Sequence record: OM386662.1
DNA: 64,000 bases
Reading direction: 5' to 3' (one strand)
Source of the DNA: Escherichia phage vB_EcoM_ESCO47
Shown: positions 19,342-33,582 of the stretch, one piece after another
Layout: the number at the start of each line of letters is the position of its first letter
Numbering within the stretch: position 1 is the first letter of the stretch
Made by a program: the position numbers and the translations under genes
The notes under the pieces: generated by a model
The model's input: only the letters and a program-made list of their open reading frames with translations
The model's database searches: none
What the model was told of the DNA's origin: nothing

Positions 19342-20361
19342 ATGAAAATTTTGCAATTAGGTGACTTCCATATCGGGGTCAAACAAGACGACCCATGGGT
19401 TCAAGATATTCAGCGTGACGGCATTCGACAAGCAATTGAGTATTCTAAGAAAAACGGAATTAACACATGGATTCAATATGGTGATTGGTTTGATGTCCGT
19501 AAAGCAATAACACATCGCACAATGGAATTTAACCGTGAACTGGTCAACATGATTACTAAAGCTGGTATTCGTGTCCATGTAACTATCGGGAATCATGACA
19601 TTGCGTTCAAGAATACAATAACACCAAATACGGTTTCTGAACTACTTACCCAATTTGAAAACTTTACAATCTATGAACATCCAACTACAGTAGATTTCGA
19701 CGGTTGTCTTATTGATATTATTCCATGGATGTGTGAAGAGAATACAGGCGAAATCTTAGAACATATCAAAACGAGTTCAGCCGCGTATTGTGTTGGGCAC
19801 TGGGAACTGAATGGCTTTTATTTCTATAAAGGAATGAAGTCTCATGGGCTTGAACCTGATTTCTTAAAGACTTATAAACAAGTCTGGTCCGGCCACTTCC
19901 ACACAATCTCTGAAGCTGCTAACGTCAAATATATTGGGACACCATGGACCCTTACTGCAGGTGATGAGAATGATCCTCGCGGATTCTGGGTATTTGACAC
20001 TGATGTTGAACGTATGGAATTTATTCCTAATGAAACAACATGGCATCGACGAATCACTTATCCGTTTAAAGGCAAAATCAATTATTCTGATTATACTAAT
20101 CTAGCCGTACGTGTTATAGTATCAGAAATTGATTCAGAGTTGACTAAGTTTGAATCTGAACTTGAAAAAGTAGTTCACTCTCTTCGTATGGTTTCTAAAG
20201 TTGATAACAGTGTTGAATCTGATGACGACCAGGAAATCGAGATTAAATCACTTCAAGATATCATTAAAGAATATATTGACGCGATTCCAGATATCTCGGA
20301 CGAAGACAGAGAAGCGCTGGTCAAATATTCCAACGAACTTTATATTGAGGCAACACAATGA
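19342..20361 (+). CDS. 47: Recombination nuclease subunit gp47 (Mre11-like)
   Basis: 339 aa; MKILQLGDFH, GNHD phosphoesterase motifs. Confidence 0.85.
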   Translation: MKILQLGDFHIGVKQDDPWVQDIQRDGIRQAIEYSKKNGINTWIQYGDWFDVRKAITHRTMEFNRELVNMITKAGIRVHVTIGNHDIAFKNTITPNTVSELLTQFENFTIYEHPTTVDFDGCLIDIIPWMCEENTGEILEHIKTSSAAYCVGHWELNGFYFYKGMKSHGLEPDFLKTYKQVWSGHFHTISEAANVKYIGTPWTLTAGDENDPRGFWVFDTDVERMEFIPNETTWHRRITYPFKGKINYSDYTNLAVRVIVSEIDSELTKFESELEKVVHSLRMVSKVDNSVESDDDQEIEIKSLQDIIKEYIDAIPDISDEDREALVKYSNELYIEATQ

Positions 20362-20615: not shown

Positions 20616-20841
20616 TTATGAAATCCATCGTCATGAATTTAGTATTGATGACGGTTATATTGGTGTCGTTGAATGGACTGAGAATTACGAGGAGACAACT
20701 CCTCGTTTCTTTGGAACAATGTATGTTACCTGTGAGTACGCACCGGGTGTTGTTATGTATGCAGAACTAGATGAATATTTTGCTGATAGAGATGACATGT
20801 TAAAATATGTAGAGGACTTCATTCGAAGAGAATACATATGA
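20593..20841 (+). CDS. Hypothetical protein
   Basis: 82-aa ORF. Confidence 0.45.
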   Translation: MRIMTKTDYEIHRHEFSIDDGYIGVVEWTENYEETTPRFFGTMYVTCEYAPGVVMYAELDEYFADRDDMLKYVEDFIRREYI

Positions 20842-22526
20842 AATCATTTAAATTAAATCGTGTTCGTTATAAAAATATAATGTCTGTTGGGCAAAATTTT
20901 ATCGATATCCAATTAGATAAAGTCCAAAAGACCTTAATCACAGGTAAAAATGGTGGTGGTAAATCTACGATGTTAGAAGCCATCACTTTTGGACTTTTCG
21001 GCAAACCATTTCGTGATGTTAAGAAAGGACAAATCATTAATAGCACGAACAAGAAAGAGCTCTTAGTTGAGCTTTGGATGGAATTCGATGATAAAAAATA
21101 CTTCATCAAACGAGGTCAAAAGCCCAATATTTTCGAAATCTCCGTTGACGGTGTTCGTCTCGATGAATCTGCCAGCAGTCGTGACTTCCAAGAAGAATTT
21201 GAACGTAGCATCGGAATGTCCTATGCGTCTTTTAAACAAATCGTCGTTCTTGGTACAGCAGGGTATACCCCTTTCATGGCTCTTAGCACCCCAGCTCGTA
21301 GAAAACTTGTCGAAGACCTTTTAGAAGTCGGCACACTCGCTGAAATGGATAAAATCAATAAGTCTCAAGTTCGCGAACTTAATTCCCGGGGGCAAGTTCT
21401 CGATGCCAAGAAAGATGGTGTTATCCAACAAATTAAGATTTATAATGAGAATATCGAACGTCAAAAGAAATTATCCGGTGATAATGTAGCTCGTCTACAG
21501 AATATGTATGATGACCTGGCTAAAGAAGCTCGGTCATTAAAAGCAGAAATCGAAGAAGCTAATGAGCGACTACTTAATATCGTTCTTGACGAAGACCCTA
21601 CTGAGGCATTCAACAAGATAGGACAAGAAGCATTATTGATTAAATCTAAAATTGACTCATATAACAAAGTTATTAAGATGTATCATGACGGCGGTACATG
21701 TCCTACTTGTGCATCACAGTTGCACCAGGGTGATCCTATTGTCTCTAAGATTACCGATAAGCTTCATGAATGTAATCACTCATTCGAGCAACTTACCTGT
21801 CACAGAGATAATCTGAGTGTCCTAGTGGACGAATATAGAGCTAATGTTAAGACTAAACAGGACCTTGCATCTGATATTCGTACCAAGAAACAAGCAATGA
21901 TTGCCACTATTGATAAAGCTAAGAAAGTTAAAGCTGCAATAGAGCAAGCCTCAGCAGAATTTATCGACCATGCCGATGAGATAGCTTTGCTTCAAAAAGA
22001 ACTTGATAAAATCATTAAAACAAAATCGGATATCGTTCTTGAAAAATACCATCGTGGTATTATCACAGATATGTTAAAAGATTCTGGTATTAAAGGTGCT
22101 ATCATTAAAAAATATGTGCCTCTGTTCAACAAGCAGATTAACCATTACCTTAAAATCATGGAAGCTGATTACGTGTTTTCTATTGATGAAGAATTCAATG
22201 AATCTATAAAATCCCGTGGTCGTGAAGATTTTAGTTATGCTTCATTTAGCCAAGGTGAAAAAGCACGTATTGATATCGCTTTATTGTTCACATGGCGAGA
22301 TATTGCTGAAAAGGTTTCTGGTGTTAGAATCAATACATTAATTATGGACGAAGTCATGGATTCCGCGACTGATTCTGAAGGTATTAAAGCTATTTCAACA
22401 ATTCTTAACTCTCTAACCGATGCAAACGTGTTTATAATTAGTCACAGAGACCATGACCCACAAGCTTATGGACAACATCTTCAAATGAGCAAAGTTGGAC
22501 GATTTACTGTAATGAAAGCCTCTTAA
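20838..22526 (+). CDS. 46: Recombination ATPase gp46 (Rad50/SbcC-like)
   Basis: 562 aa; Walker A GKNGGGKST, CPTC zinc hook, C-terminal LIMDEV Walker B. Confidence 0.9.
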   Translation: MKSFKLNRVRYKNIMSVGQNFIDIQLDKVQKTLITGKNGGGKSTMLEAITFGLFGKPFRDVKKGQIINSTNKKELLVELWMEFDDKKYFIKRGQKPNIFEISVDGVRLDESASSRDFQEEFERSIGMSYASFKQIVVLGTAGYTPFMALSTPARRKLVEDLLEVGTLAEMDKINKSQVRELNSRGQVLDAKKDGVIQQIKIYNENIERQKKLSGDNVARLQNMYDDLAKEARSLKAEIEEANERLLNIVLDEDPTEAFNKIGQEALLIKSKIDSYNKVIKMYHDGGTCPTCASQLHQGDPIVSKITDKLHECNHSFEQLTCHRDNLSVLVDEYRANVKTKQDLASDIRTKKQAMIATIDKAKKVKAAIEQASAEFIDHADEIALLQKELDKIIKTKSDIVLEKYHRGIITDMLKDSGIKGAIIKKYVPLFNKQINHYLKIMEADYVFSIDEEFNESIKSRGREDFSYASFSQGEKARIDIALLFTWRDIAEKVSGVRINTLIMDEVMDSATDSEGIKAISTILNSLTDANVFIISHRDHDPQAYGQHLQMSKVGRFTVMKAS

Positions 22527-23239
22527 TGAGGCTTATGTTTACAGTTATCAAAATGCCAACGATGCATATTAGCAGGGATCCCTATTTTATCGCAATGAGG
22601 ACATTTAATTTTCTTGTCCTCTTTTTTCTTTCTGTTAGGATTTGATTTACAGAATTTTATATGCGGCTTTAACGCCGATAACTTAGTAGTTAAGCCACAA
22701 AACGGGCAAGAATCTTCTTTCCAAATTTTCGTGGCCATGGTTTTAATTATTTTATCCTTTGTTTCTTGATCAAGTTTTACTATTTTAGGCGTAGGGCCTT
22801 GTTTACAGTTATCAAAATGCCAACGTCTCATGTTTCCTTCAGTGCCAGTTAAACCGCAGTGTGGACATGTAATCTTTGGTTTATTTTTTGCAGACTCGGA
22901 CATTTTCTTACGAGTTTCAGCAGTGAATTCTTTGTTCTTTTGAACTTCTTGATTCTTACGTCGAAGCCATCCAAATAATTTGTTTTTGCTTCTATCTGCT
23001 TTAGGAGATGAGATAGTCATCATACGAGCAGCATATATTAAAGAGGCATTATCTGGATGGATTTTTACTAGCAGTTGATGTGCCAAATAATGTTCTTCTG
23101 GTGTTAAATCTACTAAGTTTAAAGCATCATCACTTCCACCTAAACATTGTGGTATAATGTAATGACGTTCTGTATAACCATCTAAACTTCTTGATTTAGC
23201 ATTGGTGATAAGCTTTTCGTATATTGAGTTATAATTCAT
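22523..23239 (-). CDS. Free-standing HNH homing endonuclease with three C-terminal zinc-finger-like repeats
   Basis: HYIIPQCLGGSDDALNLVDLTPEEHYLAHQL HNH motif; three CP(H/F)CG...H(F/I)...CK repeats; only sizeable minus-strand gene in the block. Confidence 0.65.
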   Translation of the reverse strand: MNYNSIYEKLITNAKSRSLDGYTERHYIIPQCLGGSDDALNLVDLTPEEHYLAHQLLVKIHPDNASLIYAARMMTISSPKADRSKNKLFGWLRRKNQEVQKNKEFTAETRKKMSESAKNKPKITCPHCGLTGTEGNMRRWHFDNCKQGPTPKIVKLDQETKDKIIKTMATKIWKEDSCPFCGLTTKLSALKPHIKFCKSNPNRKKKEDKKIKCPHCDKIGIPANMHRWHFDNCKHKPH

Positions 23240-23293
23240 TTACTAAATCCTTATTTGATACAGCAACAGATAAATTGATAAACCTATTTATAT

Positions 23294-23318
23294 TGCTTTA
23301 AACACGGAGATTTATAAT
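23294..23318 (+). promoter_or_regulatory. MotA-box middle promoter upstream of rpbA/45
   Basis: TGCTTTA then 19 nt to TATAAT (23313-23318). Confidence 0.4.
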
Positions 23319-23508
23319 GGCTGAATTTTCAACCGGACAACAACTTCTAGCTGTTCCAGAAATTAAAAAATATGTTCTGACTAATACCTTTTCAGGTGAA
23401 GAACATATTGTTACTGAAGAAATGCTCAAAAATGCTTTTAAAAATGAGTATTATAAAATAATGTCTAATCGTTCAAATGCTTTTATTGTTAGCGACTACT
23501 ATGACTAA
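23317..23508 (+). CDS. Hypothetical protein (45.2 position)
   Basis: 63-aa ORF with GGAGA RBS; its ATG overlaps the predicted -10. Confidence 0.35.
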   Translation: MAEFSTGQQLLAVPEIKKYVLTNTFSGEEHIVTEEMLKNAFKNEYYKIMSNRSNAFIVSDYYD

Positions 23509-29475: not shown

Positions 29476-30108
29476 ATGAAAACCACTCCTATTACTATCG
29501 CAATTGACGCAATCGTAAAGCAAGCTTCATCTCTGGCTACTATGGCTAAAGTAATTAGTCAAAATTCAGCTCGATACAATGCCATTCTTGAAACCTTGCG
29601 ACGTCCTGGTCTGAGTAATTATGAAAGTCGTGTAATTATTACCGGTGTCGGTAAAAATGCTAATATCGCAACTAAAGCTTCTGAAACATTTGCTTCACTC
29701 GGTATCCCGAGTATGTACTTGAACACTGGGCATTATTCTCACGGTGATGCAGGATTCATTGCGCCTAATGATGTGTTGATTCATATTAGTCGTTCTGGTA
29801 AAACTGAAGAAATGATTGGCGTGGCTAAGCATCTTAAAATGATTCGTCCGAACGTCAAACAGATTCTGTTGCATTGTAACCCGGACATTCCACAAGAAAA
29901 TGAAGCCCTTTTTGATTACTCTTTCTGTACAGGCATCGCAGTAGAGGTTGATGAGAATTCTCTGGCTCCGACTATGTCAACTACATTGTTGTTAGCGCTT
30001 ATCGATACGTTTGCTATCAACCTTTCATCTGAACGTGGATTTACCTCTAATGACTTCCTTAAGTTCCACCCTGGTGGTGCACTAGGTGCCATGTTACGAG
30101 GCGAATAA
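29476..30108 (+). CDS. SIS-domain sugar-phosphate isomerase, KdsD/GutQ-like (putative arabinose-5-phosphate isomerase)
   Basis: VIITGVGKNANIATKASETFASLG...HGDAGFI...ISRSGKTEE...LAPT.STT...HPGGALG parallels the KdsD SIS domain; no CBS domains. Confidence 0.65.
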   Translation: MKTTPITIAIDAIVKQASSLATMAKVISQNSARYNAILETLRRPGLSNYESRVIITGVGKNANIATKASETFASLGIPSMYLNTGHYSHGDAGFIAPNDVLIHISRSGKTEEMIGVAKHLKMIRPNVKQILLHCNPDIPQENEALFDYSFCTGIAVEVDENSLAPTMSTTLLLALIDTFAINLSSERGFTSNDFLKFHPGGALGAMLRGE

Positions 30109-32421: not shown

Positions 32422-33582
32422 ATGAATACTTTTAAAATCGGAACGAATTTTGATTTAGCTCTTCTTGATAAAATCGTAGAGCTCAATAAAACTTATCCTA
32501 ATAGCTTAATAAACGAAGTATACGGCTCTACAAGAGAAATGGCTTTTGTAGCAGCCAGACCTGATTTTAGGCTTCCTGACGTTGACAAAAAGATGTTAGA
32601 AGATTACGTTAAACGTTGTAACGAATTAGGTATTTGCTTTAACTATACACTCAACACGATAAATCCTGGTTCAAAAAGAGAACTAGTTGAGTGGAAGAAG
32701 AAAGCTATTCAGGATTATGTTCAGTATCTTTGGTCAATAGGCGTATGGCGTATTACTATCGCTAACCCTGTTGTTATGGAAATTGTTCGTGAAGTCAATA
32801 AAGACATTGAGATTGAAGTTTCAACAATTCTACATGTCGATGCTGTAACTCAAATCAAATACTTGCATGACCAATATAATATTAAAAAGGTCTGTTGCGG
32901 AATTCATAAGAACCGTTCAGTTTCTTTCCTGAAGCGTGCAGCAGAGTTTTGCAATAAGAACAATATAATATTTGAAGTTCTTGTAAATGAGTTCTGTTCT
33001 AATGCTGGTAAAGGGTATACAACACATTGTAGTTATCGTGACTCTTGCTATATTTTCCATAGTACTGATGTTACAGTTGATGATGCTAAATCCTTAAACG
33101 GATATCCAATGCAACACTGCATTAAAGCTCGTGATACAGACCCATTTAACTGGTTGAGAACTCGTTTTGTTCGTCCTCAAGATTTGAAACTTTATAATGA
33201 TATTGGTATCACTCAATTCAAAGTTTCAGGACGTACAGGTAGCACAGACTACATTTTGAAAGTTCTTGAAGCATACGCTTCTGAAAAGTTTGAAGGTAAT
33301 TTGTTAGAACTGTGGAAGCCTTTAGAGACTATTTTCACTCTTGAAAATGAAACTGAGTTTTCACATACAGTAAATATTGAAACCTCTTTGTTAGATGGCT
33401 TTTTAGAAAAAAGGTGGTTCAGACATCCAGATTTCGATTGTGCTAATGAAATCTGCGGGACGACGTGTACATATTGTGAAAGATATTATAAACGTCAATT
33501 ATCTAAAAACGGGTTATCAGAAAATTCTATATCTATTATTGATATAACTAACTCTGATGACGCTTTGAGGTACCCGGAATGA
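32422..33582 (+). CDS. Peptidase-U32-family protein (PrtC/RlhA/TrhP/UbiU-like putative Fe-S enzyme)
   Basis: Architecture and blocks ITIANPVVMEIVRE, IEIEVST, IFEVLVNEFCSNAGKGYTTHCSYRDSC parallel the U32 core as I recall it. Confidence 0.5.
   Translation: MNTFKIGTNFDLALLDKIVELNKTYPNSLINEVYGSTREMAFVAARPDFRLPDVDKKMLEDYVKRCNELGICFNYTLNTINPGSKRELVEWKKKAIQDYVQYLWSIGVWRITIANPVVMEIVREVNKDIEIEVSTILHVDAVTQIKYLHDQYNIKKVCCGIHKNRSVSFLKRAAEFCNKNNIIFEVLVNEFCSNAGKGYTTHCSYRDSCYIFHSTDVTVDDAKSLNGYPMQHCIKARDTDPFNWLRTRFVRPQDLKLYNDIGITQFKVSGRTGSTDYILKVLEAYASEKFEGNLLELWKPLETIFTLENETEFSHTVNIETSLLDGFLEKRWFRHPDFDCANEICGTTCTYCERYYKRQLSKNGLSENSISIIDITNSDDALRYPE

Follow-up and report, generated by a model that had tools for sequence, protein, structure and literature searches.

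A predicted Mob-type homing endonuclease cassette reversed beside gene 46 of Escherichia phage vB_EcoM_ESCO47, with a probably inactivating change at the catalytic histidine

Introduction

Free-standing homing endonucleases shape recombination boundaries in T4-like phages. To our knowledge, few of them have been characterised, namely MobE, I-TevIII and several Seg enzymes. Here we describe a gene of this kind in Escherichia phage vB_EcoM_ESCO47 (ESCO47; sequence record OM386662.1), from which a stretch of 64,000 nucleotides (nt), hereafter the window, was analysed. The gene lies reversed in the spacer between genes 46 and 45.2 of this RB69-like phage, and it is very probably a free-standing Mob (HNH)-type homing endonuclease cassette. 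An earlier note on this DNA had pointed it out as a mobile endonuclease insertion. Our literature searches turned up no publication on an endonuclease inserted between genes 46 and 45.2.

MobE nicks the phage T2 nrdB gene and homes via double-strand-break repair, and its gene has no promoter of its own (PMC2790892). In I-TevIII, two CX2CX12-13HX3C motifs, which bind one zinc each and are needed for DNA binding, lie within the dimer-forming region (PMC1865063). All homing endonuclease genes of T4 but segD are co-oriented with their neighbours, and a promoter in the opposite direction would give antisense RNA (PMC2988022). The T4 46/45.2 spacer harbours the middle promoter P45.2, which has been mapped (start at 33257) and is MotA-dependent, and a MotA-box consensus has been given (PMC2988021). 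ESCO47 itself is a natural Mosigvirus isolate from horse dung, with 93.4% identity to the nearest published relative (PMC10269720).

Results

An antisense endonuclease gene separates genes 46 and 45.2

The plus strand of the window carries genes in the T4-type order 47, 46.2, 46.1, 46, 45.2, rpbA, 45, 44, 62, regA and 43. Among the 47 open reading frames (ORFs) of at least 150 amino acids (aa) in the whole window, that of the endonuclease is the sole one on the minus strand (Table 1); the earlier note had called it the only large minus-strand gene in its block. Its stop codon overlaps that of gene 46 (20838..22526, +) by 4 nt, TTAA at 22523-22526, also in agreement with the note. The note had placed the gene between 46 and rpbA, but its actual downstream neighbour is gene 45.2 (23317..23508, +).

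An exact-sequence look-up identified the protein as UPW39337.1, annotated in Escherichia phage vB_EcoM_ESCO47 as "putative homing endonuclease". It matched PHROG 655 ('homing endonuclease', E = 2.7e-64), which also includes MobD-like proteins, and had 1360 homologues (best E = 1e-160). A tblastn search with the protein also matched RB3 mobD and RB43 mobE. Both marks of the Mob family were found: the shared N-terminal Mob-type HNH domain followed by a family-specific C-terminal domain, and a gene that stands free in a spacer flanked by conserved phage genes and occurs in some relatives but not in others. No Pfam or NCBIfam family was above threshold for the protein, and just weak zinc-ribbon matches were obtained. 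We do not read this as novelty, because the fingers and the HNH subtype have no curated model there. The ESCO47 endonuclease is an uncharacterised addition to a known kind, which already bears a GenBank label to that effect. No second copy (paralogue) of the gene was found elsewhere in the window, and none of ten other mid-sized window ORFs that were checked is a homing endonuclease.

The HNH core carries tyrosine in place of the catalytic histidine

With a profile of 32 family members, residues 21-50 could be aligned to HNH cores in E. coli McrA, in a group II intron maturase and in Cas8-HNH fusions. In an AlphaFold2 model (mean predicted local distance difference test, pLDDT, of 87), strands 24-27 and 42-45 and a helix at residues 47-60 are followed by further helices and three small beta-beta-alpha units, and the beta-beta-alpha-metal fold of the HNH, or His-Me finger, nucleases was recognised. 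Structure searches returned weak matches to classical zinc-finger arrays on DNA, the Rad18 UBZ finger, Cas8-HNH, GVE2 HNH and McrA. H26, N41, H50 and H54, at the metal-ligand, loop Asn and helix His/Asn positions of such nucleases, are present and invariant in the alignment.

The motif E-x-H-H-I-x-P occurs in every relative and reads E-R-H-Y-I-I-P in ESCO47. The HH pair was found in 127 of 128 alignable family members, ESCO47 being the only one with HY; residue 27 is histidine in the alleles of FL31, ST0, G2285, NHEP10, F2 and mar005p1. The H27Y change is the sole amino-acid difference of ESCO47 from the FL31 and ST0 alleles, and the ESCO47 and FL31 genes are 4 nt apart.

In His-Me finger nucleases, the general-base histidine is nearly invariant and occupies the C-terminal end of beta-strand 1, and the preceding residue helps to hold the metal (PMC5714182). 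In the AlphaFold2 model, strand 1 ends with residue 27. The family has the general-base histidine at this position, and the ESCO47 copy does not. The HNH core that the earlier note had called classic is therefore not so in ESCO47, as the catalytic histidine conserved in the HH pair of its relatives is replaced by tyrosine. In I-TevIII, H26A and H27A each abolish cleavage, and binding is retained (PMC1865063). Because residue 27 is at the general-base position and these I-TevIII mutants lose cleavage, the ESCO47 copy is probably catalytically dead, with cutting predicted to be absent or very poor.

The cassette is polymorphic among relatives and confined to one site in five genera

Relatives were searched with the gene 46-to-gene 45 region, and ~155 records with at least 80% identity were obtained. 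In 13 of them the whole query was covered and the cassette was present; RB69 and most others matched in two pieces without the ORF. The spacer between genes 46 and 45.2 is 54 nt in RB69, SQ17 and pEK20, versus a 0.8-kb cassette in the carriers, and the site is empty in T4. In FL31, ST0, G2285, NHEP10 and F2, identity to ESCO47 was 98.0-99.3% over the cassette, 95.4-96.8% over gene 46 and 83-84% over 45.2-rpbA-45. Kinship in gene 46 does not group the carriers: the nearest relatives of F2 are SQ17 and pEK20, both non-carriers, and that of FL31 is RB69. A second, MobD-like endonuclease insertion is found 1.7 kb away, and all four presence/absence combinations with the 46/45.2 cassette exist, hence the cassette assorts independently of it. 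Presence or absence, conservation above that of the flanks and independent assortment support the reading of the gene as a free-standing mobile insertion. The earlier note had proposed comparing the junction among T4-like genomes, with a lack of polymorphism as a sign against mobility; the comparison was run and polymorphism was found.

Orthologues with 44-67% identity are inserted at this site, likewise antisense, in Gaprivervirus PSD2001, Tequatrovirus FL08, Slopekvirus PSKm2DI and Pseudotevenvirus Banach, where they are convergent with gene 46 and adjoin or overlap its end. Together with the Mosigvirus copies, they are one lineage, antisense at one site in five Straboviridae genera. Remoter family members are found at many other loci, beside nrdA, gene 4, topoisomerase, helicase and gene 2. 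The six Mosigvirus alleles have 20 synonymous versus 3 non-synonymous variable sites, with 81% non-synonymous expected at random (P = 6e-12). This excess of synonymous changes indicates that the protein is under purifying selection in the lineage.

Taken at the level of sequence comparison, these data suggest that (i) the distribution has the pattern expected for a homing endonuclease lineage faithful to one target; and (ii) super-Mendelian inheritance has indirect support, as the cassette is more conserved than its flanks and identity changes sharply at its right edge.

Other insertions and a diverged allele were observed in the same region. The MobD-like HNH endonuclease (286 aa, PHROG 655) replaces 46.1 in F2 (L002:653-1513), SQ17 and pEK20, and is not present in ESCO47 or RB69. 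A third polymorphic insertion, between rpbA and 45, encodes 296 aa (PHROG 7504, 'homing endonuclease') in FL31 (L005:1907-2797) and is also found in G2285, where it is split into two ORFs (L007:1908-2797). In both phages, 45.2-rpbA is bracketed by the 46/45.2 cassette and the rpbA/45 insertion. The Mosigvirus mar005p1 allele (OZ035759.1, L009:3501-4217), with 80% aa identity overall, has 93-97% nt identity in its N-terminal half and 53-76% in the region from finger 2 to finger 3, which suggests that the DNA-binding module may have been swapped within this gene. Other records named vB_Eco_mar005P1 (LR027383 and others) are without the cassette.

The cassette replaces 13 nt of RB69-type DNA, and identity changes sharply at its right edge

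The left break follows position 22515, and the last three codons of gene 46 are rewritten, from TVS in RB69 to KAS in ESCO47. Because the old spacer is retained at the right end of the insert, the DNA specific to the cassette is confined to 22516-23293. Relative to RB69, carriers have a 31-nt deletion just before the 45.2 ATG, between the -10 element and the start, and a 3-nt insertion just after the ATG, which gives 45.2 an extra alanine codon in all cassette-bearing phages. Coding homology to non-carriers picks up again at codon 3 of 45.2.

As a marker of an immune target, fixed nucleotide differences between carriers and non-carriers were sought in genes 46, 45.2, rpbA and 45, and none was found outside the cassette. 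The possible target sites in gene 46 or rpbA of relatives, suggested in the earlier note, could not be shown in 46 or 45.2. The sequence peculiar to empty sites comprises only the gene 46 end and the spacer up to the 45.2 start. We infer that recognition would involve this gene 46 end-spacer interval, and that carriers would be immune because the cassette disrupts it.

In the 80 nt that end at 23319, ESCO47 does not differ from F2 or ST0, and ~11 differences follow in the 45 nt from 23320. The left edge of the divergent block that begins here coincides with the right edge of the cassette. The chance of one boundary at 10 nt or less from the cassette edge is ~1%, by a post hoc estimate that considers four such boundaries in the 7.4 kb compared. 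The boundary fits the published siting of nuclease genes at boundaries of genetic exchange between phages (PMC10448857), and it is consistent with a cassette gained by repair that would have copied the donor on the left side only.

The divergent block itself (23320-~24700; 45.2, rpbA and 45) has 75-90% identity to every relative, cassette-bearing or not, with 96-100% on both sides, and its best match in the phage collection is 84.6%. A second divergent patch, at 19400-19800 in the 5' half of gene 47, has 63-88% identity to relatives, versus 96-100% further on.

The C-terminal domain has three predicted zinc fingers of two subtypes

Three C-x2-C...H-x3-C motifs were found at residues 125-145, 178-197 and 213-233, with the predicted zinc ligands C125/C128/H141/C145, C178/C181/H193/C197 and C213/C216/H229/C233, one set per beta-beta-alpha unit. 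The spacing is X12 in fingers 1 and 3 and X11 in finger 2 (CX2CX11-12HX3C); fingers 1 and 3 are of one subtype (RWHFDNC) and finger 2 is of another. Tandem motifs homologous to I-TevIII residues ~207-264, as expected of an I-TevIII-type finger region, are present. The Cys/His ligands of finger 3 are invariant across the family, and among 130 family sequences surveyed, 32 have three fingers and 86 have one. The earlier note had listed three CP(H/F)CG...H...CK repeats; the three motifs stand, with the correction that the third finger starts CPHCD and not CPHCG.

The near-identical 25-nt direct repeat reported in that note is real but is an exact repeat of 26 nt, embedded in a 77-nt repeat of 73% identity. 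Between fingers 1 and 3, the exact match shortens to 11 nt in F2 and to 8-20 nt in other genera. The orthologues of the four other genera have each of the three fingers, and therefore the finger arrangement is old. Recent triplication or gene conversion of the fingers was considered and rejected, since the fingers predate the genus split and the exact run is only 8-20 nt elsewhere; the triplicated module of the note is thus no recent triplication, but two subtypes shared with the other genera.

A metagenomic protein (P0025, 357 aa) has a GIY-YIG-type N-terminus followed by seven copies of the CX2CX12HX3C finger. The finger module is therefore common to HNH and GIY-YIG endonucleases.

Expression signals at both ends of the cassette

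The T4-type late-promoter motif TATAAATA upstream of the endonuclease gene is the only one on the minus strand of the window. In 128 kb (both strands) ~7 matches are expected, and by our estimate one would fall by chance in the 77-nt spacer, on the correct strand, with a probability of ~0.004. All Mosigvirus copies have the motif unchanged; the exact TATAAATA is found upstream in FL08, and the TAAATA core in the three other genera. T4 co-orientation being the norm, the antisense orientation is unusual for the class, though conserved in this lineage.

Back to back with the late-promoter motif stands the MotA box of a plus-strand promoter. This old spacer element is TGCTTTA-N11-TATAAT in T4, CGCTTTA-N12-TATAAT in RB69 and TGCTTTA-N12-TATAAT in ESCO47, and we infer that it would be a retained, P45.2-like middle promoter for the downstream genes. 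The -10 TATAAT and the 45.2 start codon overlap (TATAATG, 23313-23319) in every phage that bears the cassette. The 31-nt loss between the -10 element and the 45.2 start accounts for this overlap, and GGAG lies within the promoter spacer. P45.2-like transcripts would then probably start inside 45.2, without the 45.2 start, and serve rpbA and gene 45 only.

At the other end, the convergent stops of gene 46 and the endonuclease gene are covered by a hairpin with an inner stem AAGCCTC/GAGGCTT and an outer stem ACTGTAA/TTACAGT. The inner stem is formed by the final codons of the two genes, which in gene 46 are the rewritten ones. Gaprivervirus PSD2001 has a similar hairpin (-16 kcal/mol), and the three remoter orthologues, in FL08, PSKm2DI and Banach, do not. 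The hairpin may act as a terminator or 3'-end stabiliser of the two convergent transcripts. The hairpin lacks a proper T-run. The scan for intrinsic terminators called none, and the scan for sigma-70 promoter consensus gave none of note.

Apart from the endonuclease locus, a 210-aa ORF just after the DNA polymerase gene (29476-30108) matched PHROG 5670, arabinose 5-phosphate isomerase (E = 8e-116).

Table 1. Features of the endonuclease cassette, in window coordinates
Feature	Position	Strand	Basis
Homing endonuclease ORF, 238 aa, ATG start	22523..23239	-	ORF list; PHROG 655; homologues; exact-sequence look-up
HNH (beta-beta-alpha-metal) core, residues 24-54: E24, H26, Y27, N41, H50, H54	23078..23170	-	family profile; AlphaFold2; MobE similarity
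Codon 27, TAC (Tyr), CAC (His) in relatives; plus strand GTA	23159..23161	-	alignments with relatives
Zinc finger 1, residues 125-145, CPHCG-x7-NMRRWHFDNC, finger-3 subtype	22805..22867	-	motif; model strands 122-124 and 131-133, helix 134-144
Zinc finger 2, residues 178-197, CPFCG...HIKFC then KSNPNR, counterpart of I-TevIII first finger	22649..22708	-	BLASTP; PHROGs 27406, 12324
Zinc finger 3, residues 213-233, CPHCD...RWHFDNC, counterpart of I-TevIII second finger	22541..22603	-	alignment; BLASTP
26-nt exact direct repeat, encodes RWHFDNCK in fingers 3 and 1	22536..22561 and 22800-22825		repeat comparison
DNA found only in genomes with the cassette, in place of 13 nt of RB69 (CTGTTTCATAAAC)	22516..23293		alignments with RB69, SQ17, pEK20 and six carriers
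T4-type late-promoter motif TATAAATA, 46-53 nt upstream of ATG (putative function)	23285..23292	-	sequence scan
Shine-Dalgarno-like AAGGA, 8 nt before ATG	23248..23252	-	sequence reading
MotA box TGCTTTA, 12-nt spacer with 45.2 Shine-Dalgarno GGAG, TATAAT overlapping 45.2 ATG	23294..23318	+	T4/RB69 spacer alignment
Hairpin over convergent stops of gene 46 and endonuclease gene	22506..22545		fold energies -20.8 and -19.4 kcal/mol; z = -5.3 and -4.6 (two strands)

Discussion

In relatives with an intact enzyme, we propose that the gene would be transcribed late from its own TATAAATA promoter. The three beta-beta-alpha CX2CX11-12HX3C fingers, with short helices between them, would bind a long site that lies at, or close to, the empty 46/45.2 junction in the DNA of a co-infecting phage, and the N-terminal MobE-like HNH domain would nick or cut close by. 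The cassette would then be copied into the broken genome through recombinational repair, and carrier genomes would be immune, their junction sequence being replaced by the cassette. The enzyme may nick, as MobE does, or may cut both strands as a dimer, as I-TevIII does. Mob genes are difficult to clone, and RB69-type DNA has modified cytosines, so that substrates made by PCR may be misleading.

For ESCO47 itself, the best explanation overall, in which we have somewhat better than even confidence, is that its copy is a recently inactivated homing endonuclease that probably still binds DNA. A lone change at a key residue, in a gene otherwise untouched, fits a homing endonuclease gene at the onset of its degeneration phase; the single mutation at codon 27 may reflect selection or drift. 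Several points weigh against this explanation. A single deposited genome underlies H27Y, which could reflect an error of sequencing or assembly; apart from H27Y, the ORF, promoter motif and fingers are as intact as those of an active gene; and the cleavage, binding and target assignments for the endonuclease are predicted. In addition, the His-Me nuclease PacI uses a catalytic tyrosine, though one from an omega loop, at another position (PMC5714182), and by this analogy residual activity of the Y27 protein is conceivable. A fully working ESCO47 enzyme, with Tyr27 tolerated (e.g., as nucleophile) or the T at codon 27 a sequencing error, would agree with the intact ORF, promoter motif, Shine-Dalgarno sequence and all twelve zinc ligands in a gene just 4 nt from the FL31 allele, and PacI shows that tyrosine can stand in for histidine chemistry in the superfamily. 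We nevertheless consider it unlikely, as residue 27 is histidine in 127 of 128 relatives, alanine at either histidine of the I-TevIII pair abolishes cleavage and the PacI tyrosine sits elsewhere in the fold.

Retention of the Y27 protein as a nuclease-less DNA-binder seems improbable to us. Such a protein might repress its own late promoter and the adjacent P45.2-like one, or shield the junction from co-infecting active homologues; I-TevIII catalytic mutants still bind their homing site, I-TevI is also an autorepressor whose operator overlaps its late promoter (PMC2988022), and here the late-promoter motif adjoins the remnant of the original spacer (23285-23318). Yet Y27 is found in a single genome and looks recent, with no other amino-acid changes, no lineage maintained with Y27 was seen among 128 family sequences, and binding by the Y27 protein is itself putative. 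That the tyrosine variant is a selected switch we hold to be quite improbable: a nuclease-dead binder on the homing-site remnant between the late and P45.2-like promoters would tune 45.2/rpbA/45, or late antisense transcription into gene 46, or would protect the junction from related endonucleases of co-infecting phages. If this were true, the sharp recombination boundary at the right edge of the cassette would identify this endonuclease lineage as one that drives the exchange of modules around the sliding-clamp genes. Very improbable, finally, is a non-selfish phage nuclease that works with the gp46/gp47 recombination nuclease or against host DNA, its patchiness being ordinary gene loss. The gene is always beside gene 46 in the five genera, and the late expression motif would suit a role in recombination; but RB69, T4 and ~90% of close relatives grow normally without it, loss alone leaves unexplained a cassette more conserved than its flanks, members of the same family occupy many unrelated loci (nrdA, gene 4, topoisomerase, helicase), and the domains are shared with the proven homing enzymes MobE and I-TevIII.

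In annotation, "homing endonuclease" is right as a family name, but activity is not to be assumed for ESCO47. We see no alarming consequence for the use of this phage in phage therapy. The lineage is a natural experiment, with one site over five genera, an antisense gene with its own late-promoter motif and a modular MobE/I-TevIII architecture. The ST0 and FL31 alleles versus that of ESCO47, whose proteins differ only at the catalytic histidine, offer a test of how far inheritance and flank conversion depend on cutting.

Among described systems, the T4 and RB3 Mob proteins resemble the ESCO47 protein in that their genes stand alone in a spacer flanked by conserved genes for replication or recombination, and in that the C-terminal, DNA-binding part varies. 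Over residues 1-94, identity to RB3 MobE is 43% (E = 2e-22), marking a homologous N-terminal nuclease domain. The ESCO47 C-terminal domain, in contrast, is unrelated to that of MobE, with no similarity beyond residue 94, and the ESCO47 copy is without the second histidine of the HH pair. MobE is co-oriented with its neighbours and without its own promoter, whereas the ESCO47 gene is antisense to every neighbour and has its own late-promoter motif. T4 segD is likewise opposite to the surrounding essential genes (PMC2988022), but it is a GIY-YIG gene with no identifiable promoter and presumably very low expression, unlike the ESCO47 cassette with its exact late-promoter motif.

The overall plan of an N-terminal nuclease and C-terminal fingers is that of I-TevIII. 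Residues 163-234 (fingers 2 and 3) are 38% identical over 74 residues to the finger pair of RB3 I-TevIII (BLASTP E = 1e-10). The ESCO47 protein differs in having one more finger upstream of this pair, which repeats the finger-3 subtype. I-TevIII is encoded inside the nrdB group I intron, whereas the ESCO47 gene is free-standing at 46/45.2, and the I-TevIII HNH is of another subtype, with no detectable similarity to the ESCO47 N-terminal domain; the ESCO47 protein is thus no I-TevIII orthologue, for which an intron-encoded gene and the I-TevIII HNH subtype would be expected. As judged from these alignments, it is a MobE-like nuclease domain joined to three predicted zinc fingers, the last two of them homologous to those of I-TevIII.

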